A model generated the notes under the pieces. It saw only the letters and a list, made by a program, of their open reading frames with translations, was not told the DNA's origin and made no database searches. Made by a program: the position numbers and the translations under genes. Positions 7,197-36,255 of a DNA stretch of 58,548 nucleotides are shown here, piece by piece. Origin of the DNA: a virus (taxonomy: Duplodnaviria; Caudoviricetes); the IMG/VR virus record IMGVR_UViG_3300046167_000506, positions 1 through 58,548 of that record; one strand, 5' to 3'. The first letter of the stretch is position 1, and the number at the start of each line of letters is the position of its first letter.

Positions 7197-7533
7197 TTTT
7201 AGATGCGCTAAGTGTAAGCAGCGTAAACCAAGGGAGGAATTTCACAAGGACAAAAGCAGACCGTCCGGAGTACAGAGATACTGTAAGCCTTGCAAGAAAA
7301 ACGTAGACGTTCACGGAAAGAAAACACTTGACGGAAAGTTTGTGCTATACTATTTACCCAAAGAGCGGTACATAGGCATGACTAAAAACTACTCCAGGAG
7401 AGTCAAGCGTCACAAAGAAAACGGTAAGAATGTAGAGTGGGCTTTCATTGTAGTAAAAACTAAACACATGAAGCTAGCGCATCTACTAGAAACACTGCTT
7501 CACATGCTAGGCTTTAATGGGTTTAGGTACTAG
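7186..7533 (+). CDS. Zn-finger plus GIY-YIG-like small nuclease
   Basis: CAKC...CKPC, then VLY(x7)YIGMT...RRVKRH and a downstream conserved-type E (LLE). Confidence 0.65.
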   Translation: MADNFRCAKCKQRKPREEFHKDKSRPSGVQRYCKPCKKNVDVHGKKTLDGKFVLYYLPKERYIGMTKNYSRRVKRHKENGKNVEWAFIVVKTKHMKLAHLLETLLHMLGFNGFRY

Positions 7534-7996
7534 GTATATCAAAGTCTACATACTCGATAGTCAACTCACCGTCTTCCGCAGCGTCAGCTAAGTCCGGGTA
7601 TATTCTTTTGTAAGCATCAACCGAAGACCCAATGAATCCCTCTTTGGTTATGTTCTGCTGCGAGTGATCTCCTACCAGTAAACAACCAGCAGTGTGGTCA
7701 TCAGTGTTCCCAGTATGAATAAGTATGTACTCAAAGTTTGGGACGTCGCGTACCCAAAGCATGCCGCGATGAAACCCACCATACTTTCTACCATAGCGGG
7801 AGTGAAATCCACCGGTGGTTCTAAGCGTGACCTTATACTCTCCTGCAGGTACTCGTGTTTCCCCGTAAACTTTTTCTTCTCTATGCTCATCTTCTAGTGT
7901 GAATGCTAAGAAATCTCTGTTCCCGTCTGTTATATCAAACAACAACCCCAGTGTACTGTCTTCTTGCGAAGAGAATCTTACTACTTGTAGTTTCAT
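7523..7996 (-). CDS. DUF5675-family putative endolysin (L,D-transpeptidase-like)
   Basis: STLG..TLED..RVPAGEY..VPNFEYILIHTGNTDDHTAGCLLVG (H...C pair); next to the holin. Confidence 0.85.
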   Translation of the reverse strand: MKLQVVRFSSQEDSTLGLLFDITDGNRDFLAFTLEDEHREEKVYGETRVPAGEYKVTLRTTGGFHSRYGRKYGGFHRGMLWVRDVPNFEYILIHTGNTDDHTAGCLLVGDHSQQNITKEGFIGSSVDAYKRIYPDLADAAEDGELTIEYVDFDIPST

Positions 7997-8358
7997 TTTG
8001 TTCTTCCTTTTTTATCAATCGATCTTACCGCAAAGTAACCACCAACAACAGTGACACTGAGCATGTTCCATAAGTTAATCCAAGCTGAGTTGACATCTAC
8101 AATTCCGAGGCCATCAAAGAAAGTCATCAACACTAGAAAAACCACAACCACTATAAGGGTGAGCGGGCGTACATTCTTAGACAACCAAGACGTAGAGTCC
8201 ATGTCTGATTCCCAGCGTTTGCTAATCTCTTGTTCAATCTGCGCCTTTGCTGCAGCCTTTTCTTCCGGAGTCGCCACGAACTTGTCGACGATATTGCCTA
8301 CCGCGTTCACAGTTTCTGTTGCACTCCCTCCTAAAATCTTTTTAATAATATTACTCAT
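7993..8358 (-). CDS. holin (3TM/GTA-holin-like)
   Basis: RWESDMDSTSWLSKNVRPLTL followed by hydrophobic helices and GGYFAVRS.DK basic tail. Confidence 0.85.
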   Translation of the reverse strand: MSNIIKKILGGSATETVNAVGNIVDKFVATPEEKAAAKAQIEQEISKRWESDMDSTSWLSKNVRPLTLIVVVVFLVLMTFFDGLGIVDVNSAWINLWNMLSVTVVGGYFAVRSIDKKGRTK

Positions 8359-11300
8359 CTCCTAAATTTAAAAAATAATTTCTAACCATTCCATCTCTGT
8401 ACGATTTCCAAGGATACATACCCCCATCGTATGTGCCTCTGGAGTTTCTGTTGTAAATAGATTTAAGACCGCTAATCTTTTGTGCATTAGTCATGCGCTC
8501 GTAAGAATTGCTAGTCACAAATCTTTTAATCTCATTGTATCTGTATGCACCGAAAGTCTTCATCATAGCGTGAGCATCCTTTGGCATCACATCAATGTAG
8601 TTCGGTTCATTTACATTAAGGCCGTGGTAAGCAGCCTCACTCTTAGTGAGTTGAATCTTTAGTTTACCCACCGGCATAGGATATCCAGGGATCACATCAG
8701 TATCACCAGTCTCTTTGAACAAATTGTATATCTCAATCTTTACCGGGTCAGTCGAACTTATTCTAGATTTAAATACACCAAAGGTGTTGTAGAGCCAAGG
8801 GTGTTCATCTCCGTCACCAAGCATTAAAGACCCGCCGCCTTCTGGAGTTTGAGTGATTGACTCACCCCAAATGTTTACACGAGGAATGACCTGCGTACCA
8901 GTGCCTAGGTAGTTAAATGTTTTATCACGTAAGATGTTATCAAGCACACTAAAGAAGTCTGCGTTAGGATGTCTGTAGTCTGGAAGATACTCACGTCCAG
9001 AACGATAGAATGCGCTGAGCGAGTTCGGTAAGATTACAGAGAATCCAGAGCGTGAAATATTCTCGAGGTACTTGGTAAGCTGTCTCTCACTTGGATCAGC
9101 AAGGAGCTTGATGATACCGTCTATACCAGTAAGGAAAGACTGATTCATCATAGAGCCTAACACCCCAGGAACAACCCCCGTTAAATCTGCGAGGTAATCC
9201 ATAAAGTTGTTTGATCGATTAAGAACTCTTGATTCCATTTGCGCATCACGCATAGTAGACTTTAAGCCTACAGCCTGGGCCGCTATTACCGCACCACCAA
9301 GACCAAGCTTCTGATAGTTAAACCACACATCGTCTGCCTGGAGTGTAGGGTCTTCGCTTCTCAACATCCGTTTGATACCCGTGATATTAATAGAATTTGG
9401 CGGGGCCACAGAATACTTTAAGTCTCTTTCTCTTGAAACATCGGCATCTACCGGTGTAGTAATCAGCCCGCTTTCCATTAATCTTTGTGTAGCCTTATAC
9501 ATCAACCAGCTCATGAATGCTTTTGATAACAACTCAGAAAGCTCACGTTGAGACACTCTTCCTTTTGCTGCTTTCTTTATAGCAATCGTAGCAAGAGGTA
9601 TGGCAGGGTGTGCTAACTGAATACTTTGAGCTAGGATGTTAGCCGGAGTCTTAACGTATGGCATATGCATACGCACTGCAACACGGAAAGCGTTCTCCAA
9701 CACACGACTACGCTCGCCAATCAAATCAGCGGTTCTTGTTATGGCTTTGTTCAGCCAAGTTGCAAACTGGTTATCTTCCTGGAAGGTAACTTTAAGACCT
9801 GCTTGTGTAGCCCTGGTTCTGTATTCCTCATTAGGGTACTTCAAGAATCTATTCATCTCTTCACCGCTTATGCCTAATGACTTGCCTATTCTGTAGAGCT
9901 CGTAGCCCTCCATGAATTTAAAGAACGGCACATCACCAAAGGCTAGTAACCTAAACATAATGTTTGCTGGTGTCCCACCAACTGCCTCTAAGAATTTTTT
10001 AGCGCGGTAGTCGATCTGGTCTAGCTTAGTTCCATTCTTTACAGAGTCCGGGAGCTTATCACTGTTAGCCATGATTAAACCAAACGCTTTAATCGGAGCA
10101 AGCTGAAGCTGCATGTTGTACTCGAACTTATCGTTGGGAACCGTCTCCCCAATAGCACTCTTATACGCGTCTTTGATACCAACACCGAACTGCTTGCCTG
10201 CATAAATTGCAGCGGCTATAGAAGGCGGTAGTGACGCTAGGCTAGGATCAACATCTTTACCCATAGACCTGCGGATACCATTAATCATAACCTCAGCACC
10301 ATACCCAAGAGTTTTATCTAGGGCCATGATAGGAAGTGTAGAAAGGTTGGCGGTAACGTTAACCATCTGAGACACCGGAGTAAGAAGATTTCCCTGGATT
10401 AGCAATCCAATTAATTTACCCCAAGTCATAGCGTACTTGCTATTGAACTGATTCAGTCTCTTATTAGCCTCAGACACTCTACGCTTAGCATCTTCTAGCC
10501 TACCCTCGATATCTCCAATGCGGTCTAGGTCTGTGGTTTCTGCTAGCTCTTTGATCAAGGCTTGAACATCTTGCTGACCATCAAATAAATCATCAACAAT
10601 AACACCCATCTCTTCGTACTCAGTATCCGATAACTTAGTACCGTTTGAATCGTACACGCTATCCACAAGGTCTTTCATTCCTTCTGGTGTCTGGCCTTTT
10701 ATCTCACCGAACTGACGCAGCAATTGCCCCACAGCTGTACCCGTCTCAAAGAATCTTTTTAGAACAGCGCGATACTCTGCTGTACGGCCCTGCTCTTGAA
10801 GCCTCTTGAGATATTCTAGCGTAGCCAACACACGGAAGTCTCCACTTGCCAAGCTGCTCATAGCGTCGTTGACAACCGAAGGGTTCTCCCCGTCATACAA
10901 AGCAACATCTTTCATCTCAGACATTAGCTCCTCAATACTCATCTCTTCTAACCGCTCTTTGATATCGTCAATCTTCTGAGGCTCATAGAATCGAGAAGGA
11001 TCATTTCTTAACTCGGCACGAACGGAAGCTTCAAACGGAACATCCGGACGTAGATTTTGGAACATCTTACGAGCGTGTCTTCTCTCTCTCGTTTCATCTA
11101 ATCTGGCACGATCACCAGAATCGACATACCAATCTGGATTAAAGATACCACCTGCTCTTTCAAACACCTGGTCTTGAGCTTCCTCAAAGCTGATGTTACC
11201 CTTAGCATACTCTTCCCATATGCTGCGAACGTCTTGCTTGTTTTTCTTCTGACCCTTGAATCCTGCAGTAAACAATGTACGAACAGCTTCCCAGGTAATA

Positions 11301-14300
11301 GACTGCATCTCTCTTGCGAGCACTCCTTTTTCTTCTGCAGCTCTACGATATGCTTCAGCATAAGCAAAGTAAATCCCCTTAACACCTAGGTTAGAACTAC
11401 CGGCCTTAACTTTCATTGCAGCTGTGCCTCCACCAAAGTTGTGAAAAACCTCTGCGCTAGATCCTGCCAAAGGAAGTAGCTCAGCCGCCGCCACCGCATG
11501 TGTGTCAATCGTAACGTCACCCTCTGGGGAATTAGGATTGTTAATGTTGTTAAAGAACGAGCGCACCTTATGCTGGTCACCCACCTGCTTATCAATGTTT
11601 TTCATTGTACCGTTAAGCGCAATAGATGTGGCTGAAGAAATCTCAGCGTAAGAACCCCAAGCCATTGTAGACATAGAGCCGTCCGCTTTCTTAGCGTAGC
11701 CAACGCGCTCACCAATAGGGCTAACGACATGGTAGTTGCGGTCTTCAAACATCTCGTTGTACGTGCGCACAAACATCGCAGCATTCATAGCGCCATTGTC
11801 TTCAAGGCTCATAGCACCGAGGGTTTTACCCAGCATGTTTTGCAAGACGGCTTTTCTTTTTAAGTAAGACTCGTATGTCTTTCTATCAGATACCCTTTTA
11901 AATTCTGACTGGGTAAGTATTTTGTTTTTTACTTTACGTGTGTTACCAAGAGCTTTATTGTACATAGACTTAGAAAACTCTGTATCTTTCTGATTACGCA
12001 TAACGCGCATTACCGCCTCAGCTAATGCCATGTTCTGATACCAGTCTTTCTGTGGAGATAAAGCGGCAAGCATACCTGCTGCCTGCTCTTGAGTGTACCC
12101 AAATCTAGCGCCCATGTCTTGAGCGGTAAGGTTCGCGCCCACGTACCAAAGCTTAGAATATTTTCTCACGTCTTCACTAAAGGAGTCATGAAGTCTGATA
12201 AGGTTTTTAGTAGCTCGATCAACGAACACTTCGTAAATCTCATCAGCCTTTTTTAACTGAGCTTCTGTAGGGTTCTTCGTGTCTAGCGCTTTTGTTCCCT
12301 TGATATCGGACATCATTGTATGCGTGCCTAATACAAAAGCCCCGCGAGCATATACAGCTGGAGCATTCTCTCTGGTATAGTCCATAGAGATTTGTCTAGA
12401 CCCGTCGTAGTTTAGCTTAACGTCTGACTTAGCGGATGTAGCACGAGCAGGTGACACGCGGTTACCCGCTTTTATTTTACCTACCGCAGCTGCAACAGTC
12501 TCATCATCTAGTCGAGCGCGGTTGCCGTCCTCCATGTACCTCAGCTTAGACCTTAGTGCTTGAACTAGACTTGACCTTTCTCTTTCTCTGGTCTCAAAGA
12601 TTGGAGCGAATTGACTTTGATAAGATTCAGTTCCGGCAATAGCTTGAGCGCCGTCATCGAACATAGGAGCTTCAAATCTTTCGATCATATCTCTTAGCCC
12701 ATCAGCATCAATGTTCTTTGTGAGAAGCTCTGCTATAGTTCCAGCCTGGAAGTTAAGCGGTCCTCGCACTGGGGACTCGTCTCCTATAGGGTCAGCAATA
12801 TTATAAGGGCCTTCACGGAAACCTTTAAATAATTCAGTGCCATCGAGGTAAGGCAAAATGATCCCATAGTCGTACTGTCTTTCAATGTCATCAGCTGGGT
12901 TCGGGCTGAGGCTAGATTCTGGACCTTTAGGTAATTGCATCTGTTCAAGAATCTGTCCGTTCAACACATACTGTGCTTCCTCTTGATCGTACATCACATC
13001 CTGCATTGTGGTAATAGGCACTCTACCCGGGATGGCCGACTCATGAACAATCTGATCTTTATTTTCCTCTCTAAACGTAGCGGCCTCTTCACCGACAAGA
13101 CCTACTGGGTTCAGCTGGGTAAATGGTTCTCCCCAAAAGAAGTGTTGCTTCTCTGCATAGCCTGGAATAAACGCAGCTTTTGTCTCATTGGATATTTCAT
13201 CCATGAAAACTCTATGCCCAGTCTCTGCCAGACGAGAGCTCATCATCATGTTAGAGTCGTAACCGTCTATATCAAACGCTTCAAACAATGGGTATCCGTT
13301 TAATGTTTTCTCAGTACTAGAAAACCCTAAATTAGCAGCGTGAATGTCTGGATTAACAGCACCTAGCAAAGTAAACGAACCAGTCATTTGCCAAAGATTA
13401 ACAGCGTATCCAATGAGATCTTCAAAGGTCATAGCCCCACTGCTAACCTCTTCACCTACAACTGAGCCACGAACTTCCATTTCGTTCTCAATATACTTGT
13501 TGATCTCTGCGGTCTTGTATGGGTCTTGATATACTTGCATTAAGGTTAACGCAGTAGCTTGAGCGGTTGGTAAGTCTACACCTCCACGCATATTAGGAGT
13601 AGCCATCATTGAGTCATATAGCTCCTCTGCCGGGGCATTATCTATTAACTCTATAGACTTATCATATACATCAGACACAGCGTGTATAATACGTCTATAC
13701 ACATTGTTTACTGAAACATCATAACTACCACCATACTTGTCAACAACCGTTTTCGACAAATCCTTAGTGACAAAGATGACGCCGCTTCTCTGCCAGTCTG
13801 TTGCAGCATCTAAGAACATTGCCCCCAGCTTGTGATACTTAACGAGCCCAGGTAATTTACCGTCATAATCGTAAATGTATCTAGAGGAAATATATGTTTC
13901 TCTTTTGCTGCCCGTTCTTTTAACTACGACATCACCGTCCGGCGTGCCAACAACAAATGCTTTGCCGAAAGCACCCGAGCCAATCTCTTTAATCTTATTG
14001 AATTCAATACCCCCATTAAGCAGGTACTCTTCTATACGAGCACGGTTGCCACCGTCAACATCTGAACGCTCGCTGGGATCAAGCATGGCTTCACGCTGAT
14101 ACTCTTGAAGTATACCATGGAAAGCGGTCTGTACTTGCTCGTTAAAATAGTATATCGAGTCACGCTGTGGAGTGTCTACTTTAGCAGTACCCGGAGCCCC
14201 ATCTACTTTAAACAGCTCATTCTCTAAGACTCTCATTAAGCTGTAGTCTGGGTTCTTGTGCATTAGCTTAACAAGACCAAGAGTCTTTGCTACATGCTTA

Positions 14301-17300
14301 AGAGCTTCTTTGGATTTAGGTGGATTTTTGTCGGCGTCCACGTAGAAATCTTCTGCCTCAAAATCATCCATTCTGATGTCTGGGTCTGCGTCAAGAATGG
14401 CCTTGATTGTAATAGGAGGAACAACTCCAAGCCCTATACTATTGTAGTAAGCTCTAGCGTTGAAATCCTCTTTGCCTAAACTAGTGTAATAGTCTGCGTC
14501 GGCAGCAGCGTATTTGAGCATGCGGTTACCTTCTTGAGCAAACCCTCTGTACTCTTTGGCGACAAGCACATCAATTTCGCTGGTAGGGAAATTACCCGTA
14601 AGCGAATTGTTGTCATATATATCCCCCATAATATCAAAGAACTTAATAGAGGAAAATTTCTCAATCTTATTCTCGGAATCAATGGCCGCAAACCCTACGT
14701 TACCAGCATGAAGATCAGCTGTTCTCAGACCTAACTTCCCAAGGCTTTCGCTCATCGCCATTTGATTGTCTAGGTAAGCCATAGAAACGTCTATCACTTC
14801 CTCTGAAGAAAATCCCTCAACATCAAAATGGGCACGGATAGCATTGTCGATTAGAGTGAATATCATTTCATTGTTGTCGTACAACGCAGATATCTTTTCT
14901 AATGCCCCAGGGTTGTTTATATCAAGATCTTCTAGGCTTTCTTGTCTTACATCAGAATAATCTATACTACTAGGACTTGCTTCGCCCATTGCCCTAACCT
15001 TTTTCTGAAGCTGCTCTATCTTCCCAACACCTACGATCGCAAACGGATTAAACAAAGTATCGTTAATGTCAGAGGCTATGTTTTCTACTACATGCTTTCT
15101 TAAAAGCACAGAATTTAATTCTGACCTAGATACATCTGAATCTAAAACCCTTCGGTTATCTGTGTTGTAGTCTAAACCAAACAGATGATCATACAAGTAA
15201 TTGTAAAGGTTGGTCTTTAAATCTAGAGCTCGCGAGTTTAGTATAGGCTTGAACACGGCTGAGAGGTTGGTTAGTTTCAACTCTCTAAACCCAGAACCTA
15301 CAGTTCTTTGAGCATCATTGATCGGCTCAAGCCTAGCAGCTTTAAGTTCTTCATAAAGCTCTTTTACCATGGTCATATTCTCGATCATGGATTGGTGCTG
15401 AATTTTACTAATCCCTCTGCTAGGATTTGAAGCACCAGAGTAAGGGAAGTTTCTGTTTAGTAGTTCAGCAACATTCTGAAGATCTCCGATTACAGCACCG
15501 ATATTAAGTTGATAAGCAGAATTATCTCTACTAATAACATCCGTCATTGACGTTGGCAAATACTCTTTGAGCTGATATACAAAAGGAACGCCGTCTATAT
15601 CTGAAGCGATTCCTACATCGTAATAATCAGCAAGACCTGGGAGTTTACCTTTAAACTTATCGAAGTAGTTCGTGGCGATATATATCTCGTCAGCACTCTG
15701 TGCTTGCTTAAGAACAACATCTCGACCATCCTTGTCTTTGACCATGAAAGCATAACCAAAAGCACCGCTACCCAGCTTCTTCATGTCAGACAAATCCAGG
15801 GCACGATCAAAAGCATAGTCGATTAATCGAGCACGGTCATCCGCTGTAGGTTCAGACTCAGTACGCATTGCCTCTGCCGGGTTAGGGTTTGGATTTGGCT
15901 GTGCGTTTCTGACAATATCTAATATGTATATCTTATTACCAGTTCTGTATCCCTGCGTAACACGCTCGATCATATTGACCAAGTCGTTGTCACTCTTTAA
16001 GTGGAACTTACCGAGCTTAGCGCCAAGCATCTTGTTGATGACTCGTCTAGTCTTAGCCTTGGCAGTAGCATCAATCTGATTAAGGTTATCGTTAATGTCT
16101 GCAATAATACCAACGATCGCTTCTTCCTCAGCAATAGCAACAGCCTTTGCCTCCGAAGCACCACGCTCTATATAGAACGCCACATATTTACGAAAGCGCT
16201 CATTGATTTTGTTGCGAAGTGTTTCGTTGTTAACGCTTTGCAGGTCATTGAATAGTTTTGTACGAACCGCCGGCTGCAGAACCATAACGTGACGAAGGCC
16301 CTGCATGCGCAAACTCCTCACGTATAGCAGCGGTAGTTGCATTGTACATGACGTGAATTGCAGGACCGCCTTGTCTTTCGTGTTCATAGAAAGCTTCGTA
16401 CGGACCACCAGTGGCACGCTGCAAAGACTCTTTTGTTTTATGAATAATAACACGCGGGGCTTCTGTATACAAACCAACGAATGCATTGAACGCGCTGTTG
16501 AGCATAGCTGCTATACGAGGTGTAACACCGTGGCGTCTTGGGTTTACTGCGCCACCACGAACCTCTACAGAATTGTCTAATTCTTCAACAGCCTCTCGGA
16601 CTTTCTGCGCTTCAGACGCCGCTTCTTCAGCAGCACCTGGCGCTACTCTTTGGGCTGGGCGAGTAGCTGGGCCAACACTTGGTTGCGCTTGCTCTGCGGT
16701 AGGTTCATTAGTCTCTCGTACAGATCCTTCTTCTGCGAACTCGCGCTCGGCTTGTTCAAGGGCTTGTCTTGCTGCTTCATTGTTTTCAATTACTTGGTTA
16801 ACTTTTGCTCTATCTGTAGGATTCTCTTTAGCTGCTAACAGTATTTGATACGCAGCATCTAAAGCGTCTTGGCCGTAGAGCTCAACAACCTCACCGCTTT
16901 CGTTTTTCATTTGCACACGAACACCTTTATCCGCATCTGCAGAAATTGATTCGGGTGATTGTAATGGATTGAATTGGCCTTCGCCAAATATAGATATGGC
17001 ACTAACGCCAGCTTCCTCGTCAATAGTCAATTTTGTTCCTTGCGCCACAGTAGGGTTGTCCTCGCGCTGATAAACAAACGATCCATCTTCTTGCACCGCT
17101 AATGTCTCGCGCTCAGCAATGGCTGGCTCAAACATTCTAATAGTAGACGGGTCAACCTCGCTGCGCTGCCCGAGCTCTACTTTTTCTGTCTCAGTCTCAA
17201 TAACCAGGGTAGGATTCTCTGGGTTCCCTTCTAAGCGAAGAGCGCCTTGTACCTCTGTCCCATCTATAGGACGCTGAGCTATAACCTCTGTACCGTCTTC

Positions 17301-19075
17301 TAGTGTATTAATAGTTACAGCATCCACCTCAGAGCGGCCTTCAGCGATAGAACTGGCATCTGATGAAGCCGTTCCTGGTACAACCGGAGCCTGCATCTGA
17401 TCTAGGGTAGTGGTTTCTACCGCTGGAGCGACAGCCTCAACCTCAAACGTTCCGAAGCCAGTCAGCATGGTTAGAATTTCTCCCCCTAATCTAGACTTAA
17501 GTTTTGTATCTGTTGCATCCTGCATTTCTTTCTGCAGTGCAAATATCTTTTGACTCTTCTCGATCAACTCTACTTGTTGGTCTTGACTGAGTTCTTCGAA
17601 TGCTCTAATGTTTGCATTGAGCATTTCGTATTTCTTGTTTCTAAGCTCCTTAATGTCGTCACGCAAAGTCTGCTTTGCTTCCTTACCCTTTACATCCTTA
17701 AGCTGATCCTTTGTTTCTTGTATTTTTTTCTCTACTATCTGTACGTTACCGTCACCCATTAACGAAGCAGCGGTAGTAATGCTACTACCGTTTGCCTTGT
17801 TCCGATCCGCCCACTGGATATAGTTTCTCTCTGGGGTCGGCGTCATTAGCTCTGTATATCTAGAGCTAGCGCCGCGGGTTAAAGCGGCTGGGGCAGCCAT
17901 TACTGGACCACCTAATGCTTCCATAACAATATCGAGACCCGAGGTAACTTTACCATCTTCAACAAGTTGACCTGCAGTTTCACCTGCAGCACCACCTGCA
18001 GCATCTACTAATATCTCAGCGACCACTGCCTTTGTTTTACTACCTCCAGCTCTTCTGATAGCCTGGGCTGTCGTACCACCACCACCAGCAAGAAGTGCAT
18101 CTACAGAAGCAATAACGGCAGCACGAACCTTACGGTCCTCCATGGCTTGCTTTATTTTTTTTAACCCTTCTTCAGACTCAAAGGTTTGCGCAATTTCTTC
18201 CGGATCTTCAGTATCTATATGCAATTCCTCGAGAGCCATAGAAATAGCTTCTGACATTTCAAGGGCATACGAACCAGCATAAGCACCACCAACCGCAGCG
18301 CCATACGCAGTACCAGCGACATAACCAACGGGGAACTGTGACCTCGGCCAAAGGGACCGCCGGCCAGACCAGCAGATGCGCCAATAGCTTGACCCTCTGT
18401 GATACTCTCTAACACAGTCTTTTGTGCACCACCACTCGCTAAAGCACCAACGGTAGAAGAGAAGAAGTTACCCATCACTTCTGGTATCACCGTTTTCCAC
18501 CAGCCACTAGGCGAGCCAAAGTCTTCCCATCCAGGAGAACCCCGTTCGTCTCTGTATTTGTTTTGGATTTCGTTATAGTAAGCTAGTCGCTCTGCTGCGT
18601 CAACGTTGTTTTCTGGAGCTTCGTCTAAGAGATCTTCTTGCGCGCCAGTGGATAAGCCCATGGCCATAAAGTTGTTGTACCATCTAGCGGTACGCCCAAA
18701 CCAGTCGTCTCTATCAACGAGCCAATCGTCAGCAATAAGCGCGTGACGATATTCTCTATCGTTTGTCTCTTGAGGCTTGTTGTTGGGAGCGGAACTTTGA
18801 GTGAATTGCTGCGACAATAAGTCGTCCGAAAATTCGGTAGCGTCAGTCTTTAACTCGAACGATAAGTCCAACCCAGTGTCTTCCGAGCCAAAACCCATAG
18901 TGTTTGTAACCTGGGGAGGAGGTTGAGTTTGGTCTTTTTTTTTACTAAAAGATTCTAACGCAAGGGTAACATCGTTGTAAGAAAACCCTTGATCGATAGC
19001 CAATGCAAATATACGATCCTCGCTATATCCGCTAGCATAACCACTCTGCAGTAGTTGCAGTAACTCTTCGTTCAT
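8351..19075 (-). CDS. giant (~3570 aa) internal-virion polyvalent protein: zincin-like protease, two kinase-fold domains, DUF7178-like domain, helical C-terminal region
   Basis: three track ORFs (286, 670, 2711 aa) join after removing two extra bases at ~18330-18350 (GPFAEVTVPVGYVAGTAYGAAVGGAYAGSYALEMSEAI) and one at ~16300 (EEFAHAGLRHVM); lies between tail genes and the lysis cassette. Confidence 0.8.
11117..12508 (-). other. DUF7178-like / HhH-glycosylase-like cassette
   Basis: LWY, AALSPQKDWYQN, HKVRSFFNNI, VTIDTHA, YAEAYRRAA, MQSITWEAVR; family name from memory. Confidence 0.6.
12527..14032 (-). other. protein-kinase-fold cassette 2
   Basis: GSGAFG (13964-13981), VVVK, RE helix, DIHAAN (13331-13348), AFDI at the DFG position; shares GKLPGL with cassette 1. 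Confidence 0.85.
14051..15823 (-). other. protein-kinase-fold cassette 1
   Basis: Gly loop GSGAFG (15755-15772), VVLK, DE helix, catalytic DLHAGN (14699-14716), FFDI at the DFG position. Confidence 0.85.
16100..16460 (-). other. zincin-like metallopeptidase domain (EExxH variant)
   Basis: VIIH..EAFY..AIHV..TTAAIREEFAHAG (EEFAH 16305-16319) with downstream EEEA (16118-16129). Confidence 0.55.
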
Positions 19076-19083
19076 CTAGTATG

Positions 19084-20467
19084 TTATTGTGGAGGCGCCG
19101 GTGGACCAGGGAGAGCAGTCTGCTCTGTACTAATCACCTTTAATGAAGCCTCTTGGTTTAACGCATTTTGTTTTTTAAGTGCATTTACATAAGCGGCGTA
19201 TTCTTTACGCCCCTCTGCCCCACTAGGCTTGATCACCCTACTTCTATTCTCGTAACGAGTCATCTCGTTCCACCCCGGCTGAGGAGAATTACTTGTCTCT
19301 CCAGTGTTCGGGTCTTGATAGTATGTAGTTCCGACATTCTCCTTGACAACAATCCCTTGCCCTTCTGGTAGCCGTGCTGCGCCTAGCACAACTCTTTGAT
19401 AGGTAGGGGTAACTTCTTGCCCTGGGTCAGCCTCAATCAACACCTTGATTGGTTTTTCAAAGGTAGGAATATCTGCTGACATTTTTGTTGTGGTCATCAC
19501 TCCACTAGCATAGTCGTAATCTTCTGACGCAAAGGTTACTGCGTCTGCTCCACTGTAGTCCAGACCATTGCTTTCTTGATCTCTTCTTCTTTGATGAGAA
19601 ACACTGGCTTGCCTCCACGCATTGTCTACATACATATCTGTAGCACGCTTCATCTCTTCCGGGTCAGCCATGATGTTCTCAATCCCTACGCTTAAGTCTT
19701 GAGGATCACTGCCGTAATCCATAGCGGCCAGTGAAGCGGCTGCTGAAAACTGAAGCTCTTCTTGTGTAGCAATTCTATTGCGGAGTGTTTTATCAAACTC
19801 ACCTTTTGGGCGGTTATAGTATAGCCCTTCATATCTGCCACCGTAATCTTCAGCAGAAATAATTCTAGGTATAGACGCCTTAGACGGGAATATCATTGCG
19901 TTATCTGGATTGAACATAGGGTCTTGCGAAGCGCGAATACCAACCATATCACCTCCAGAAACAACCACATCGCCAACAGCGAGGGTCGTATCGAACCTCA
20001 GTATATGCAGACTCGTTACCGTGACGCATAGCGATACTCACCCATCATAGTCTCTGTTGAAATACCAAACTTATTTGGCTGAGACATGCCCGTAAGTAAT
20101 GTGCTTTTATCCGCGTTATGTAACCCTTCGTATTGACTTAGGTATGTGTTTGCAGCACCAACAATTCTATTAATACTGTTTAAGTTTTCTTGAGACGGAT
20201 TTTCCTTCATAAGAATCTAGCGCTTGCTTGTATCCCTCGTGATATGCAGTGAATACCTGCTGAGCTTTTGGCGGCAAGAAACTAACAGACCCTTCAGCAG
20301 CAGACATGCTCTTCTCGAAAGAAGCAGCTTGCGCATCCGCACGCTTACGCTCTCTACGATCTTCCTCAGCGCCCATCGAAGCCATCTGGAATTTGTCCTC
20401 TGATTCCCTGGATAGCAGCTTGAGTAGCTCCAGAACTATAGTCTAGTGGTTTTGAAATTAAACTCAT
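19084..20467 (-). CDS. putative internal virion (ejection) protein, ~460 aa, split by several indels
   Basis: ATG at 20467 overlaps the upstream TGA (MSLISKPLDYSSGATQAAIQG...); track ORFs 20170-20385, 20016-20210 and 19084-19968 are consecutive fragments. Confidence 0.6.
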
Positions 20468-21284: not shown

Positions 21285-24200
21285 TTATCTCTGACTCATA
21301 GCCGAATGCATCGGACTGTCTACAAACACTGTGTTTACAGCGTATAGCTCCGACTTATCATTATGCACAGAATTCGTGAGTTCTATTTTAGCATAGTAAT
21401 CTCTAAGCGTATCACCCTCGTGTTTAGCAGATAATACGGCAACTAAAGTATAACCTTCTTCTTGGCCGGTAAGCGCTGAGCTAGTGGTTATTGTTTTAGC
21501 TGTATTTATGCTAACCACCGTTCTATTTAAGTTAGTCATAGAACTGCCGTTTACCAAATACAATGCAGATCCTATAGGGATAGGAAGTCTGTTGACCTTG
21601 TTTTCAAACGTTACGGTAGTCCCATTTACAGAATCTACAACTCCTAGGGTCACATAGTTAGCGGTGGATGCGCTAGTGTCTCTAGGTATAGCAGCGTAAT
21701 ATCCGCGCTCTCTCTCATCAAAATCTCCAGCAGCAATACTGGTTGTTTGACTAGAAGTAGATACGACAGCCGACCACACAGAATCACCTTCTAGCGATAA
21801 CGCCTGGAAAGATTTGACCATGGATGGATTGGCGTTTGCAATGATTGAAATCTTTGCGTCGTAGTTCGTGCCATAGAAATTGCCATACGCTGAGCCAGCA
21901 CCATGTTCCCACATGTATTGTTGCGTATTGCTAACGCTAACGACTTTGAAAGAGAAAAATCTATCATTGATGTGGGTATAGAAGTCTGGCTTAAAAGAAT
22001 AGAAAGACGTGAACACTCTCTTGTTATGACTATACCCAATGGTAAAACCAGTGTAGTTTCCACGGTCTTTGCTGGTCAATACATATTCTGAATTATCTGG
22101 ATCAAACCCTGCAACGATGTCCATCTCCGTCTTTCCGCTTTCAACCAAGTAAGAAGAGAATTTCTTGTCAAAGAAAGAATCCATATTAGGATCGCTGATT
22201 GGAGTAACACCGTCTCTAGAGATACGTAATACACGTTGAGCCTTTATATCAGCAAAGTACATCATTCCGAACCGCTCAACAATAGCAGCAGGATAACCGC
22301 TAGAACCAAAGTCACCGGCATAATAATTAGGTGTACTAAACACCACATTAGAAACCACCACGTTTTGATCGCTAAGAGTTTCTAGTATATTTCTGTTAAC
22401 ACCAACAATACCAACCTTGTGCTCTTGGAACACATAAAGTCTATCCGTCTGATCAACAAGTCGATCTATCTTGCCGTGACGTATCTCAAAGTCACTAAAG
22501 TTAGCGGTAGTAGGGTTGAAGCTAGAGAGGCTTAGTATATTGCTATCAGCTATGTAGGGTGCTGAGTATGTGACGGAAGAACGTCTGCGCACCTGCTTAG
22601 CGTCTTCATTGATTGCGTGTGGCCGCCCTCTAGACGTTACCTCAGAATCAAAGTAATCACTAACACTAGACGACTCTACGTAGAAGGTTTCGTATTCATA
22701 GTCACTATAATTGTCCTCGTTGTATTCAGAGTTACTAGAATCAAAAGGAGCAACAAGTACTTCGCGAGGTTTAAAGTAAACATCGCCATCCGAAAGCTGT
22801 ACCACTGGGTAACCGCCATTTGTTGTGTCGCCCACGTGAGCTCCAGAAGTAATGTCATAAACCTCACCTATTTCGTAGTAAACGGTATCGTTGTTAATTG
22901 TGTTTGGAGAAAGTATTTCTACCATAACTCTTTGACCCCAGTCATCACTTCCAGCCTTTACCTTTGTAAGATTAAAGTTGCTGTATGTTTTGGTAGCATA
23001 ATCCTCGTCTCGTATTACAATAAAATTAGAAGCACGGTTAGGTGTTACCTCTGAACTGTCAGTGATAATCTCTTTACTTAGTACATTATAAATTTGATTG
23101 TCTGGATACCTACGCACCTCAGAAGAGTCGTGGAATGAAATGATTCGTAATACATCACCTTGCTTATATGTGTATTCTAAATCAGCACCCTTGTCCTTGC
23201 TATAGGATTTGTTTTGACCTTCTAGGGGGAATAGATCTAGATATATACTGTCTTGGTCAGAAACATAATGAGCACCAGCGACTCCATATTGAAGAAAGCT
23301 TGCGTACGTTTCGTTGCCACCATACACTATCTGATACTTCTTGGCCCAGCTGGGAGGTGAGTGTTTAATCTTTAAGTCGATCTGCACTCTCCCTAAGTTT
23401 GAGCTACGTGCAGAGTCGGCATATCCTCCTACATACACGCCGTCTATCTTTTGCACAAAAGAAGATCGCCCCTTAGCATCGTAATATACGATGCCGAAGT
23501 TATGCATAGCGCTGGTTTTAAACGAAGAAAGCCCTGCCTCCAAAGAACGTTTTATGTCTTTTTGCAAAGTTACATTTGCAGAAGAAACATATCTAAAGTT
23601 AGACACGCCAAGAGAGCTGGACGCACTTGTTCTAGTATCAGCGGTCGGTCCCCCGTCAATAGTAACAACGCGTCTTGAAGTTGAACTATTGTAGTGAACT
23701 TTTGCCCTTAACACATCAAACTCAACATCTATCTTTCTCTTGTTTGCTACTCCATAAGATGAATCAGCGGTAAAGGATAGTTCTATTTCTGGGAAATCTA
23801 GCGCAGCTTCCACTTGATCTCCTACAGAATATTGTTGTGTACCCGAGCCAACAGAGGTTACGACACCCGTAGCGTTAAAGTTTACACCGTTGTTTGTGTA
23901 GTCGTAAGCAATGTTTGATGTCGCAGCAAATTGCGACCTTACTTCGTCGAGTATCTGATTACGAGTCATTACAGACCCAGCAATGATTGTAGCGCTAAGA
24001 ACCTTATCTGTACTGTAAGGAACATCTATGTAATTATTTGTATTCGAATTACCAGTGTGTTTTCCGAGACCGTAGTTTCCGTTATTAGAACCAATAACAT
24101 AATCCTCGCTAAACAAGTACGCCGGGGAGTCTCTGCTTATTCTGAAAGAACCTTGAGAAGTTCCGCGCAGTGTTACTTTAAGTCTGATAATAGCACCCTG

Positions 24201-25382
24201 GCCATAGCTATCAGCCATATTTGTTCCGTCAATAATAATAGCTGGGCTGTTTCCTAGAGAGATAGGTTGCAGTGTAGCGTCTATTGTGCCAGTATCTTCC
24301 AGCCCTTTATACGTAATAGAAGACTCTACGTTAATATCCACATTATCGTAGCCCTCTGTATAATCGCCGTACACTAATCGATTACCGGATAGGGTTTGCG
24401 CGTGTGCCTTTAGCGGCACATTATCAAAGACCTTGTCTATTTCTAAAGTAGCAACAGCCGGGAACATCCCATCATTAGTAAAGTCAAAGGTAGGATTAGC
24501 TGCAGTACCGTTATCTACTTCTTCAATTTTATAAAAGACTGTAGTCCCACCAAGACGGGCAAGGAATCGAATAGATTCAACTTCCGATCCACCGTTCTGA
24601 TAGGACAGTACAATCTTGTTATTTACTCTTTCAAACTCTGGCTCTACAACACCAGTACCATATGTATTGGGGTTTACCGCCATCTTAGAGTATGTTGATA
24701 TAGCGCTTACTTCTCCGTCTTTATAAATGTACTGATACGCAAACTGAAAGGTCTTATCGGTGACATTGTTACTTTGAACGGCAGCATCTGTGGCGTACTC
24801 AAACGTGATCGGGTCTAGCGGTGGGGTTTTACAGACGGCGAAGAACTCGTCTCTTTCTGCGTTTGTATAATACCCAGTAGCCGTGCTGTTTTTCCAGATA
24901 ACATCTCTATTGGCTAACATGCGGTCCACATTAATCTTTTTAGGCTCGCCTACTCCATCAGTAAAATACACAATTGCTTCATCGTCGCCGTTGAATACAA
25001 CACTAGATTCTACAAAAGAATCAATATCAAAACCCAACTGAGTGCCACGATATAGTATTTTATACTTATTTAAGTTTACATCATAGATATAAATATGATC
25101 TATGTTTACAGAATTACTCTCTGCCTTTGCAAAGTATACCACCTGCTGTTTCTTTGGTACAGCCACAGAGCCGATAACCTTAAGGCTTGTTGGTGTAAAG
25201 TACACCTCGTCAGAAGAGCTTTGCTCTACATGTGTATTACCTTTTATGGTTTTAACGATACCAGCATTGCCGTCATCGTCAGATGAAACCTGCACGTTCT
25301 CTGCATTCAACATCTCTATCGGCTTGAGAAGTTTCTCGTCCGAAGCTTTGTTGAGGTATTGTGGTACGTTCTTGATTATCAT
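21285..25382 (-). CDS. tail stabilization/nozzle protein (P22 gp10 / crAss muzzle-like)
   Basis: 1365 aa; LNKASDEKLL..NAENV, YFTDG..EPKKIN, FAYQYIYKDGEVSAIS, GNRLVYGDYTEGYD, FGIVYYDAKGRSS motifs. Confidence 0.8.
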   Translation of the reverse strand: MIIKNVPQYLNKASDEKLLKPIEMLNAENVQVSSDDDGNAGIVKTIKGNTHVEQSSSDEVYFTPTSLKVIGSVAVPKKQQVVYFAKAESNSVNIDHIYIYDVNLNKYKILYRGTQLGFDIDSFVESSVVFNGDDEAIVYFTDGVGEPKKINVDRMLANRDVIWKNSTATGYYTNAERDEFFAVCKTPPLDPITFEYATDAAVQSNNVTDKTFQFAYQYIYKDGEVSAISTYSKMAVNPNTYGTGVVEPEFERVNNKIVLSYQNGGSEVESIRFLARLGGTTVFYKIEEVDNGTAANPTFDFTNDGMFPAVATLEIDKVFDNVPLKAHAQTLSGNRLVYGDYTEGYDNVDINVESSITYKGLEDTGTIDATLQPISLGNSPAIIIDGTNMADSYGQGAIIRLKVTLRGTSQGSFRISRDSPAYLFSEDYVIGSNNGNYGLGKHTGNSNTNNYIDVPYSTDKVLSATIIAGSVMTRNQILDEVRSQFAATSNIAYDYTNNGVNFNATGVVTSVGSGTQQYSVGDQVEAALDFPEIELSFTADSSYGVANKRKIDVEFDVLRAKVHYNSSTSRRVVTIDGGPTADTRTSASSSLGVSNFRYVSSANVTLQKDIKRSLEAGLSSFKTSAMHNFGIVYYDAKGRSSFVQKIDGVYVGGYADSARSSNLGRVQIDLKIKHSPPSWAKKYQIVYGGNETYASFLQYGVAGAHYVSDQDSIYLDLFPLEGQNKSYSKDKGADLEYTYKQGDVLRIISFHDSSEVRRYPDNQIYNVLSKEIITDSSEVTPNRASNFIVIRDEDYATKTYSNFNLTKVKAGSDDWGQRVMVEILSPNTINNDTVYYEIGEVYDITSGAHVGDTTNGGYPVVQLSDGDVYFKPREVLVAPFDSSNSEYNEDNYSDYEYETFYVESSSVSDYFDSEVTSRGRPHAINEDAKQVRRRSSVTYSAPYIADSNILSLSSFNPTTANFSDFEIRHGKIDRLVDQTDRLYVFQEHKVGIVGVNRNILETLSDQNVVVSNVVFSTPNYYAGDFGSSGYPAAIVERFGMMYFADIKAQRVLRISRDGVTPISDPNMDSFFDKKFSSYLVESGKTEMDIVAGFDPDNSEYVLTSKDRGNYTGFTIGYSHNKRVFTSFYSFKPDFYTHINDRFFSFKVVSVSNTQQYMWEHGAGSAYGNFYGTNYDAKISIIANANPSMVKSFQALSLEGDSVWSAVVSTSSQTTSIAAGDFDERERGYYAAIPRDTSASTANYVTLGVVDSVNGTTVTFENKVNRLPIPIGSALYLVNGSSMTNLNRTVVSINTAKTITTSSALTGQEEGYTLVAVLSAKHEGDTLRDYYAKIELTNSVHNDKSELYAVNTVFVDSPMHSAMSQR

Positions 25383-29273: not shown

Positions 29274-30380
29274 TTATTTAAATCTCATCAAATTGTCTCC
29301 ACCTCCTAAGAGTGCGTTAACAATCTGTTCTTCAACCGGATTACGATCTTTGCTTTGCTGAACTGGGTTAGAAGCGTCGACATTAGCTGCACGTGTAACA
29401 ATGTTTTTTTGCCCATCCCCCAAACCTTGTCGGTATGCGGACTGAACAATACCATCAATATTATCAATGATAGTACGGTGCGCGCTTAATGTCTCATGGT
29501 CCCACTTACCAGAGTCATCAACGTATTGATCAAAAAACTCATCAAGTCGAGCATTCTTATCCTTTAGAGTTGAGCGGTAGTTATCATCTATTGCGTACTT
29601 AAATTGACTTCCCTTACCTAGATCGAAATCTAATGAGGACATGTTATCAACTACGCCAGACATGGTATCTACCCACTGATCGTCTATAGGACTCTGAATT
29701 TCTTCTGAAGAGGCAGGCTTTTCTACCGGCAACATGTATCCATTTCGGACATCGTTGATTTTGGATCTGGCCTTATCAGCATCCATCTTGAGTTGAAGCT
29801 TGGAGTATGTGACATCTTGTTCATCGTACATGTCCTCATCCACCTTATACTTCTTGTCTAGAAGGAGGTTGATCTCATCGTTAGAAAGATTAGGGAAATC
29901 ACTTGCCAATTCTAATCGCACTACTGACTTGTCGTCCATTTCGGACGGATTAAGTGATTGGTAGCGAAACCAGTCTTCTGGACTACGACCCGTATTCTCA
30001 ACAAAGTCTGCAATAACCTTAATACTCTCTGGCAAAAGAATCTCTTCTTGAGCTTGAGTTTCATCCCCGAAGCTAACGTCATCCCAAGAACCGAACTTCG
30101 TATCCATCTTTTCATTAAGATACTCTAAGAACGTAGCGTCTATGTCTATGTCGTCATCTTCTGTCGAAGAACCTTGCTGCATTTGTGCCGGTTCAGCTTC
30201 CGGTGTAATATCTTCAGTAGACTGAACCACTGGCTCTTCTACTGGTTGTTGTGTTTCTTCTGTAGCGGTAGATTGCTCTGGTGCTGGTGAAGAATCGCTT
30301 TCGAAATCCGGGGTGTCGCTAATTTCGATACCCATTGCAGAAGCCGCTGCTTCTAGTGATGATTGAACTGAACTTGCCAT
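29274..30380 (-). CDS. capsid scaffolding protein
   Basis: very acidic N-terminus and helical body; directly upstream of the capsid gene. Confidence 0.7.
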   Translation of the reverse strand: MASSVQSSLEAAASAMGIEISDTPDFESDSSPAPEQSTATEETQQPVEEPVVQSTEDITPEAEPAQMQQGSSTEDDDIDIDATFLEYLNEKMDTKFGSWDDVSFGDETQAQEEILLPESIKVIADFVENTGRSPEDWFRYQSLNPSEMDDKSVVRLELASDFPNLSNDEINLLLDKKYKVDEDMYDEQDVTYSKLQLKMDADKARSKINDVRNGYMLPVEKPASSEEIQSPIDDQWVDTMSGVVDNMSSLDFDLGKGSQFKYAIDDNYRSTLKDKNARLDEFFDQYVDDSGKWDHETLSAHRTIIDNIDGIVQSAYRQGLGDGQKNIVTRAANVDASNPVQQSKDRNPVEEQIVNALLGGGDNLMRFK

Positions 30381-35299: not shown

Positions 35300-36255
35300 T
35301 AGTATGCGGTTATTGTTCCGTTAGTAATTGTATTAGTGTACTTACTGTTGCTATCGTTAGCGTTATTGTTATCAAAAGTCCACTCTGTTATAAGACCGCT
35401 TGTAACTGTTTGACTACTGTCTGCTATAACACCACTGTTATATAAGGTTGTTACTTCGCTTGAGGACAATACTTTGTTGTATATCTTTATCTCATCGTAG
35501 TCCAAAGTAGCATTACCCGCACTATTGGTAAGGTGTATGTTTTCTCCAATTTTCCCCTTAGTAGCATTAATAGCTGTTCTTGTTCCGTTATTAGCATTTG
35601 ATTGAGAAGTACACTCCGTAGCGTTCCAGTACAGTTTAAATGCGTTAGCTGCGTTTGTTAGCGAAGCATCGTAGGTTACTGTAATCATACAGAACCCATC
35701 ACTATTCACATTCCCTCTTGCACTGCTTTTCCATTTTGCACTACTATTAATTCCAGTAGCAGAATTATTATCGTGTAATGGCCATTGCCTATCAAAGTTT
35801 GTGCTATTAGTCCTTATCCTCGCAATAAGTCTATTTAAGCTTTGGCTATACGTCAACATAAATCTGTTATTGCCGTTCGAGTTTGTATTACCAAAGTTCC
35901 AAAGTAATTGATTTTGCAAGCTGCCCGTGTTGCGTACCCATATACTAAAACTCAAATCTTGCGTAGTATTTATACTAAACGGTGAAGTGCTAGTAGTGCA
36001 GTTTATATAATCACCCGTACCATCGTTTTGATAGTACCTCGTGTTTGAGTATGCTGCGGATGCATTATGGTCATAGCTATACCACTCACTAATAGCGTGG
36101 GGGGCAGAGTCGTTAGGTTTATTAGTACTATTCGTATTAATAGCTTCGTACCCTCCTTCTACTGCAAGGGAAATTGAAAATTCATCTGTTGCCCCCCGAT
36201 TTAACTCGGTGTTTAATTGGGACATTTTTATTTGTCCACTGCTTTGTAATGCCAT
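35299..36255 (-). CDS. tail-associated LamG/concanavalin-A-like domain protein
   Basis: SFSIWV, MITVTYD, KLYWN, DEIKIYNKVLSSSEVTTLYNSG LamG motifs; N-terminal MALQSSG..PHAISEWYSYDH module. Confidence 0.8.
   Translation of the reverse strand: MALQSSGQIKMSQLNTELNRGATDEFSISLAVEGGYEAINTNSTNKPNDSAPHAISEWYSYDHNASAAYSNTRYYQNDGTGDYINCTTSTSPFSINTTQDLSFSIWVRNTGSLQNQLLWNFGNTNSNGNNRFMLTYSQSLNRLIARIRTNSTNFDRQWPLHDNNSATGINSSAKWKSSARGNVNSDGFCMITVTYDASLTNAANAFKLYWNATECTSQSNANNGTRTAINATKGKIGENIHLTNSAGNATLDYDEIKIYNKVLSSSEVTTLYNSGVIADSSQTVTSGLITEWTFDNNNANDSNSKYTNTITNGTITAY

Follow-up and report, generated by a model that had tools for sequence, protein, structure and literature searches.

The 58,548-base virus sequence IMGVR_UViG_3300046167_000506 (Duplodnaviria; Caudoviricetes), a linear IMG/VR record with an estimated completeness of 97%, was analyzed at its full length and is referred to here as the window. 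On its minus strand it carries what is almost certainly one giant gene (8351..19075) for a polyvalent protein of ~3573 aa, deposited as three open reading frames (ORFs) through three 1-base insertions. The giant protein is a fixed chassis, consisting of an N-terminal region, a zincin-like domain and a C-terminal domain, on which exchangeable cassettes are mounted, and it is encoded by a marine flavobacterial-type podovirus. Its single chain unites unrelated enzymatic domains: a peptidase-like domain, two kinase-fold domains (K1 and K2) and a DUF7178 domain. A short motif, [DN]RAR[LI], usually followed by D or E, occurs in four copies and opens each of the three cassettes and the C-terminal domain. 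With confidence just above even, the best explanation as a whole is that the protein would travel as virion cargo, be cleaved at these delimiters and thereby release free effectors.

The deposited record divides the gene into minus-strand ORFs at 18215..19075 (286 aa), 16245..18257 (670 aa) and 8351..16486 (2711 aa). In a three-frame translation, the meaningful reading passes into another frame at both ORF junctions, and a read-through with an X at each break yields 3576 positions with zero stops. Comparison with the related locus L002 by blastn revealed three single-base extras inside the gene, at ~18355, ~18333 and ~16301, in CCC, CCCC and GGG runs, respectively. An IMG/VR search with the last 999 residues retrieved 13 related loci, seven of which end inside the gene at contig ends; in all six that hold the whole gene it is a single ORF (L001, 3543 aa; L002, L003 and L005, 3542 aa; L008 and L009, 3324 aa). 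We also compared the window with contigs, not raw reads, from four public seawater runs of four studies, mostly 95–100% identical to it, one of which may be its own source. At the first break (an extra C in a CCC run, 18355..18356) and the second (an extra C in a CCCC run, 18330..18333), four of four runs lack one base, at 18356 and 18330, respectively. At the third (an extra G in a GGG run, 16299..16301), located 4 nucleotides (nt) downstream of the EEFAH codons of the zincin-like domain, one base is missing at 16299 in all three runs that cover the site, the fourth having no cover there.

The gene directly upstream (19084..20460, minus strand), which is one ORF of 462–465 aa in relatives and has no Pfam or PHROG family match, contains four 1-base insertions in the window, at ~19980, 20035, 20204 and 20388–20390, and these extra bases are likewise missing from the seawater-run contigs. 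All seven insertions fall within 16299..20390, a 4-kb patch that is the window's most G+C-rich part (0.47); no further frame-breaking indel was found in the rest of the 13-kb stretch compared with L002. This crowding suggests a local assembly problem, and, with seawater contigs and relatives in agreement, assembly error is clearly the leading explanation of the breaks. Taken at face value, the stops present in the deposited window would make the three ORFs real separate genes, or genes joined by programmed frameshifting. We consider this exceedingly improbable in view of the six complete relatives with a single ORF, the absence of the extra bases from the contigs of four runs, the four further insertions that break the neighboring gene in the same patch, and the position of one break inside the conserved peptidase domain. 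A preliminary description of this DNA had joined the ORFs into one frame of ~3570 aa by repairing three insertions and had taken the stops between them for artefacts, and the relatives and seawater contigs bear out both proposals. The practical lesson is that a public virus record contains seven 1-base insertion errors within 4 kb, splitting two genes.

The family to which the protein belongs comprises 109 giant proteins in 40 clusters, and a giant ORF is present in 75 related loci, some contigs having been fetched twice. Roughly 100 relatives combine the same chassis with other cassettes. Across the cassette regions of the window protein and 21 cluster representatives, we identified Phage_L5_gp82 (14), DUF7178 (3), RadC (1) and ART-PolyVal (1), and further cassettes occur in other members: LPD23 (P0030), RadC (P0032 and P0033) and DUF3293. 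Domains diagnostic of the polyvalent class (LPD families, ART-PolyVal and RadC, among others) are found on the chassis of relatives, with none found in the window protein itself. The assignment to the polyvalent type proposed in the preliminary description is thus upheld through relatives in which the same chassis bears LPD23, ART-PolyVal, RadC, DUF3293 or L5_gp82. P0007 and P0008 differ by one extra unit, composed of a delimiter-like KARSRKSL and a methyltransferase-like domain (a weak Pfam match). Alignment of orthologues revealed the modularity that had been anticipated, with conserved flanks and with cassettes that diverge or are exchanged between the motifs; the kinases between the delimiters are 5–48% identical to those of L009, and the flanks 60–92%.

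The C-terminal domain (8354..11113, minus strand, 920 aa) is the hallmark of the family and is recognized by the motifs QGNLLT, PYVKTPANIL, MDQSFLQG and LPNxLS. It is common to 45 giant proteins of 2330–4584 aa at 26–100% identity, was found in 80 viral loci and has 49 invariant columns in a 15-sequence alignment (A5). Searches of Pfam, PHROG, NCBIfam and, by profile, the PDB returned no match for it, and tblastn of the C-terminal 902 aa gave none at E ≤ 0.01 in 50,697 phage records. A long C-terminal region had been described beforehand and is indeed present, as a conserved domain; its characterization as helical found no support in any analysis. At the opposite end, the conserved N-terminal region (16575..19075, minus strand), delineated by alignment and composition, comprises a G/A-rich stretch and, ahead of it, a small domain that ends in KKK. 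Both the KKK and the 45 residues at the very start are kept family-wide, M1, K46 and K47 being invariant or nearly so in a 20-sequence alignment (A1), and the region is 57–98% identical to L002 and L009. Its G+A content reaches 37–42% at residues ~201–400, compared with 17% overall, which agrees with the earlier account of a G/A-rich hydrophobic region in composition, but hydropathy is moderate (Kyte-Doolittle maximum 1.26). The PNPNPNP linker is present in the sequence; the acidic linker is weak, as no 60-residue window reaches 30% D+E.

The four delimiters, all on the minus strand, are DRARL (15824..15838) at the start of K1, NRARI (14033..14047) at K2, NRARL (12509..12523) at the DUF7178 cassette and DRARL (11099..11113) at the C-terminal domain. 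Shuffled versions of the protein contained a mean of 0.017 copies, compared with the four observed, and at least three copies arose in 0 of 20,000 shuffles. All four are present in 10 of 10 full-length distinct sequences of the clade, and a truncated eleventh retains three of three. The codons differ synonymously among the sites, indicating selection on the peptide. A six-frame ORF scan of the entire window located RAR[LIVM] at only three other places, one in the portal, where the flanking pattern is lacking, and two in antisense junk; the motif is missing from the capsid and scaffold proteins. The same hexapeptide had been reported at each cassette: a true delimiter, far above chance, does stand there, but as the consensus [DN]RAR[LI] and not as one identical string.

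Other lineages carry motifs of their own. We ran an unbiased scan for the 8-mer whose second match is best, which requires three or more copies anywhere in the protein, and compared the scores with four shuffles. In the window protein the top 8-mer was GNRARLDD (score 32 vs at most 27 in shuffles), and among other clusters VYFSVDEG in L060 (32 vs at most 25) and EGRASNKI in L074 (32 vs at most 28) scored similarly. Clade-specific repeats by exact 4-mer counts include GRAS (five copies), EMAS (four, with a fifth spelled EMSS), FSRRG (three), ERSA (three, plus ERAA) and RSSG (three); FSVDE, in three copies, is another boundary repeat of this kind. All fall after the zincin motif and before the C-terminal domain. 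The last copy occupies a homologous site in all clades, 15–25 residues before the conserved RxTAxRxA...NPxNY, and is spelled ERAS, DRAS, SRAS, EMAS, GRAS, GRAN, ERAA or DRAR. Two other delimiter statistics were discarded as too noisy: exact 4-mers in at least three copies (~1.5 per shuffled protein) and 5-mers with one mismatch (~3 on average in controls).

Several of these family-wide results weigh against a general delimiter. In 36 of the 40 clusters, the top 8-mer with at least three copies is not clearly above shuffles, and in P0015 the 8-mer that stands out (DFPFMLTP, 31 vs at most 27 in shuffles) is unlike a delimiter. A family regular expression, drawn from the last-copy column and chosen after looking, was enriched only 1.8-fold in the cassette regions of 33 clusters (45 observed vs 24.6 expected). 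Outside the cassettes, it showed no enrichment in the N-terminal region (35 vs 32) and depletion in the C-terminal domain (16 vs 24). The P0015 repeat is located at residues 1528, 1894 and 2875 (DFPLMVKP, DFPFMLTP and NFPFVKTP), its third copy inside the PYVKTPANIL C-terminal motif.

Cassette 1 (K1; 14048..15838, minus strand) spans 597 aa in the window, with a long insert, and 417 aa in L009; cassette 2 (K2; 12524..14047, minus strand) spans 508 aa. The two are paralogues, 22% identical. K2 was assigned from an AlphaFold2 (AF2) model, Foldseek, a PDB profile search and Atlas neighbors, and the kinase fold of K1 was deduced from its alignment with K2. Both, together with the single kinase of the sister clade, keep the kinase motifs: the Gly-rich loop, the β3 Lys, the αC Glu, DxHxxN and an FDxDG-type motif. 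Across 10 kinase sequences, G22, G24, G27, K42, E49, D233, H235, N238 and D258 are invariant. The K2 model matched 102 PDB structures at E ≤ 0.001 in Foldseek; all those listed are kinases or kinase-like, among them YtaA (the best, 2e-5), p38, FN3K, PKR, APH(9) and choline kinase. A kinase profile gave 117 matches at E ≤ 10 among PDB sequences, and the best 60 of the 117 are all protein kinases. Among the Atlas neighbors of K2 are clusters of viral Pkinase proteins and two minimal kinases, OspG (0.93) and YrbL (0.93). Single-sequence PDB searches with K1 and K2 returned nothing significant, the EGFR Gly-loop alone appearing at E 0.46. By motif search across the family, kinases are confined to the window cluster (two) and the P0007 cluster (one).

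Certain results count against this assignment or narrow it. The K2 model has a mean predicted local distance difference test (pLDDT) score of 59; residues 1–300 are mostly at 70–89 and residues 330–481 below 50, so that the model is reliable for residues 1–300 only and poor past 330. No kinase family model matched at E ≤ 1 in Pfam or at E ≤ 0.1 in NCBIfam. A phmmer search of K2 against 1.84 billion representatives found two relatives only, and no deep K2 alignment is therefore possible. The modeled fold also leaves room for more than one substrate class, as small-molecule kinases are among the best K2 fold matches. On the strength of the model and the invariant residues, we nevertheless regard a kinase fold with its catalytic residues as established, and its presence in both K1 and K2 as highly probable, in agreement with the two kinase folds first proposed.

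Cassette 3 (11114..12523, minus strand, 470 aa) is a DUF7178 domain (PF23802, E 1.4e-22; PHROG 3842), scoring 81 bits against a Pfam gathering cut-off of 27. Stand-alone viral DUF7178 proteins measure 426–481 aa, close to the size of the cassette. The DUF7178 profile had no match at E ≤ 10 in the PDB, and a literature search for DUF7178 found no paper. Whereas the DUF7178-like nature of the cassette is thus borne out, the label 'glycosylase-like' that it had also been given is not: DUF7178 is its sole Pfam family, it has no PDB relative, and its Atlas neighbors are all DUF7178 or unnamed. When the ORF that holds this domain (ORF C) was searched against phage records by tblastn, only the DUF7178 part matched, in three records. 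In Roseobacter phage CRP-738 (5819..8326), an 835-aa protein whose gene comes directly after the portal gene, the usual site of head-associated MuF-like proteins, has DUF7178 as its C-terminal half. A Pfam scan of this protein (gp40) and of the two genes that precede the giant gene found DUF7178 in gp40 only and no MuF domain. In Rhodobacteraceae phage LS06-2018-MD07, DUF7178 lies inside a coding sequence of ~3100 aa across the record start, annotated 'methyltransferase', which is probably another giant polyvalent protein.

The zincin-like metallopeptidase (MPTase) domain (15872..16574, minus strand), which spans the third break, was delineated by alignment, model and profile. It contains the EEFAH motif (16305..16319) and IAEEEAI (16115..16135), the latter holding the putative third-ligand Glu. 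Across 23 aligned family members, E87, H90 and E151 are invariant, E151 lying 61 residues past H90. At the first position of the motif, 18 of the 23 have E and five have H, canonical HExxH occurring in distant clades; from this distribution the ancestral motif looks like HExxH, of which the window clade would carry a variant. The AF2 model (pLDDT 85.9, predicted template modeling score 0.80) comprises a helix at residues 19–32, strands at 41–45, 61–64 and 72–76, the motif helix at 81–92 and the Glu helix at 141–162. Model and alignment place the third-ligand Glu on a later helix and give a three-stranded sheet with flanking helices. The zincin-like MPTase core described in section 8 of Iyer, Burroughs, Anand, de Souza and Aravind (2017, PMC5512222) has the same topology.

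A profile search of PDB sequences with this domain matched a Zn protease at E 9.8e-5, with both motifs aligned. Weaker matches, sixteen in number and mostly unrelated, followed, among them a second Zn protease at 0.009 and myroilysin at E 1.6–2. Against BFVD, a set of predicted viral structures, the model gave two Foldseek matches at E ≤ 0.001. Ten of the 50 BFVD matches listed are named large polyvalent or PolyVal proteins (best E 3.8e-5), and the third-ranked is a structural protein of Flavobacterium phage elemoC. Set against an active peptidase are three results. Foldseek of the model against the PDB gave no match at E ≤ 0.001, the best being the metalloprotease MATCAP at E 0.42, and no peptidase model of Pfam or NCBIfam reached threshold in the giant protein. 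The first zinc ligand in the window clade is Glu instead of His (the 18 of 23 above), and the domain could therefore be inactive or use another metal. The EEFAH..EEEA domain of the preliminary description accordingly stands in its motifs, its model and its Zn-protease profile match; the HExxH on a helix that marks zincin-like metallopeptidases of the gluzincin type is EEFAH in the window protein, and the PDB fold search was null.

From the sequence pattern, the delimiters are putative cleavage sites, a role toward which we lean slightly. The motif could instead be a structural or recognition element, such as a helix cap, a docking site or a signal for unfolding and refolding at ejection, with the protein acting intact. 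RARIEEYLL is modeled as the first helix of K2 (helix 2–10, pLDDT ~70), and on that ground the motif could be structural; D or N ahead of a helix is a typical cap, which we count on the same side. Section 8 of Iyer et al (2017, PMC5512222) adds precedents for intact travel: N4 packages its MPTase-bearing virion RNA polymerase (gp50) without processing, and two other carriers of MPTase domains, ArdC and TraC1, are transferred full-length. We nonetheless consider an uncleaved protein unlikely, because folds as unrelated as the kinases, DUF7178 and the C-terminal domain share one opening motif and the stand-alone DUF7178 proteins match the cassette in size. Moreover, quite different motifs (FSVDE, GRAS and EMAS) stand at equivalent places in other clades, as polyprotein sites would. 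Viral polyproteins and the substrates of phage prohead proteases carry one short motif at each junction, variable between lineages; here, the candidate enzyme differs in being a zincin-like domain inside the substrate chain itself.

Were the delimiters cleaved, another protease might be responsible, either a host protease after ejection or another phage enzyme, with the zincin-like domain serving as an effector or pseudo-enzyme. The EExxH of the window clade and the zincin fold without a significant PDB match would fit such a division of labor, and section 8 of Iyer et al (2017, PMC5512222) allows that MPTase domains may act on host proteins. Yet no other protease was found among the window proteins scanned (20 with PHROGs, 10 with Pfam). 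The sole weak peptidase match, BSP at E 0.0085 (29274..30380), lies in an acidic scaffold-like protein without HExxH, which we rejected as a separate maturation protease. In addition, the delimiter is absent from the capsid and scaffold proteins, E87, H90 and E151 are invariant, and the variation of the delimiter from one phage lineage to the next is better explained by a protease inherited along with it than by a host enzyme that is conserved. On this evidence, we judge cleavage by a different protease to be improbable. Cutting would most probably fall to the giant protein's own zincin-like domain, a proposal to which, taken by itself, we give not quite an even chance. More tentative still is the general picture of a polyprotein-like chassis, in which a built-in HExxH/EExxH protease would recognize a delimiter that coevolves with the lineage and release interchangeable, DNA-co-delivered payloads as free enzymes.

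The giant gene is one of the late-module genes and follows a muzzle gene of the crAss type, in agreement with the location first claimed for it. On the minus strand, terminase and portal come first, then several large unknown genes and those for the scaffold-like protein, the capsid, virion proteins and the muzzle homologue, followed by two small genes, the giant gene, a holin and DUF5675; the virion genes upstream and the holin downstream form the late neighborhood characteristic of the polyvalent class. Of the 61 loci with enough sequence, 52 have a homologue of the muzzle gene or of a small gene upstream, and a holin or DUF5675 is found downstream in 51 of 73. This muzzle-to-lysis-gene placement is kept down to relatives ~25–40% identical. 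By capsid protein, the nearest cultured phages are Cellulophaga phages phi38:1 and Calle (35%) and the Flavobacterium elemo phages (33%), which encode at the same position a 'structural protein' of 1691 aa (phi38:1 and Calle) or 3694 aa (elemo phages). Megablast of the region against phage records gave no match.

Synteny and precedents make packaging a reasonable inference, and by analogy with these systems we regard the giant protein as a probable virion cargo. It may alternatively be a cytoplasmic multi-enzyme, late or early, or a structural protein resembling a tail or tape-measure protein, its late-module place being incidental. The C-terminal domain without a match in the 50,697 phage records or the PDB would be compatible with such roles, and as a further point against cargo by homology, phmmer and the C-terminal profile found nothing in phi38:1 gp92–gp101. 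We consider a non-packaged protein quite unlikely, given the muzzle-to-lysis placement conserved to distant relatives and the annotation of the syntenic giant genes of cultured relatives as structural proteins. Polyvalent-protein genes, moreover, typically adjoin virion genes (Iyer et al, 2017, PMC5512222), and a polyvalent protein of 2811 aa, gp47, was detected in phi24B virions (preprint, bioRxiv 10.64898/2026.04.10.717836).

A precedent by position comes from PhicrAss001 (Bayfield et al, 2023, PMC10172136), whose post-muzzle genes encode cargo proteins and RNA polymerase subunits of 262–277 kDa; mass spectrometry detected all of these in virions, and they are presumed to be ejected. The genes for PhicrAss001 gp45–gp50, like the giant gene, lie directly downstream of the muzzle gene and have very large products. 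They differ in specifying RNA polymerase where kinases and DUF7178 stand here, and the likeness drawn here is one of gene position and product size. The text of PMC10172136 contains no word beginning with 'proteoly' or 'cleav'. On the favored account, the giant protein would be packed into the capsid as cargo, as are the products downstream of the crassvirus muzzle gene, and would leave through the tail at infection. Cutting at the delimiters would then yield fragments of ~1081, 597, 508, 470 and 920 residues, and the freed kinases and DUF7178 would act in the host before phage gene expression, where the preliminary description imagined that they may disable host defences.

Some neighboring genes are of interest in themselves. 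The muzzle homologue (21285..25382, minus strand, 1365 aa; PF25731, 6e-25; PF25729, 7.5e-17; PHROG 14478) links the Pervagoviridae/Elemovirus-like podovirus group to the crAss-type tail architecture. The holin (7993..8358, minus strand, PHROG 3427) overlaps the end of the giant gene by 8 nt and is followed by the DUF5675 protein (7523..7996, minus strand); many relatives have this pair after the giant gene. Two large minus-strand ORFs, 36255..41030 (1591 aa) and 41037..45464 (1475 aa), with no Pfam family and weak PHROG matches only, are situated between the portal and the capsid genes; phi38:1 and elemoE lack such a block at that place.

The study that defined polyvalent proteins and singled out the zincin-like peptidase as the hub domain among them (Iyer et al, 2017, PMC5512222) already proposed autoprocessing inside the head or after injection. 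For (pro)phages of Verrucomicrobia-Chlamydia and Bacteroidetes, it reported that polyvalent proteins contain kinases of a separate clade, marked by loss of the C-terminal subdomain and by signature residues, and it named the T7 kinase as a precedent for polyvalent kinases. The sequence observations of the preliminary description hold almost throughout. Its claim of an undescribed kind of protein was too strong, the interpretation being the standard hypothesis for a known class. The giant protein resembles that class as a giant multi-domain chain encoded next to virion genes, with a zincin-like hub and kinase domains, with LPD23, ART-PolyVal and RadC in its relatives, and with DNA co-delivery and autoprocessing predicted for the class as a whole. 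It departs from it in its fixed chassis, its 920-aa C-terminal domain, which falls into no known family, its mostly EExxH motif and a short repeated lineage motif at cassette boundaries that the main text of Iyer et al (2017) does not mention. That main text contains no cleavage motif, 'cleavage site' appearing in one reference title and 'linker' nowhere. Literature searches, in which many subscription papers were not covered, found no later work on polyvalent-protein processing. The novelty lies in a well-delimited family built on a fixed chassis, in its EExxH variant, in the tandem kinases of one clade and in delimiter motifs, specific to each lineage, at every cassette boundary.

Two individual proteins invite closer comparison. 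N4 gp50, as described by Iyer et al (2017), is likewise a podovirus protein of ~3500 aa with an N-terminal injection part and a central enzyme, and the region with its zincin-like domain is needed for encapsidation; it is packaged unprocessed with one polymerase, in contrast to the three delimited enzymatic cassettes found here. The 3694-aa gp18 of vB_FspP_elemoE_6-9C (NC_055854.1, 18852..29936), annotated 'structural protein' and carrying DUF3293, shares the gene order (capsid 33%) and some cassettes, and its peptidase domain, with canonical HExxH, is 37–39% identical to those of family members. Its C-terminus has no match to the family C-terminal profile, and it has no kinases. This protein is a possible experimental stand-in.

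It was predicted in 2017 that polyvalent proteins are injected and cut into effectors; the literature that we found does not define the cut sites or the manner of cutting. The present family offers exact candidate cleavage sites, conserved within a lineage and changing between lineages. These sites, the candidate protease that shares their chain and the cassette exchanges found in nature together make the processing hypothesis directly testable. If it is true, the chassis would account for the delivery of kinases and other enzymes by marine flavobacterial phages before genes are expressed, and it would provide a rule, applicable to thousands of giant phage genes that lack annotation, for locating effector boundaries.

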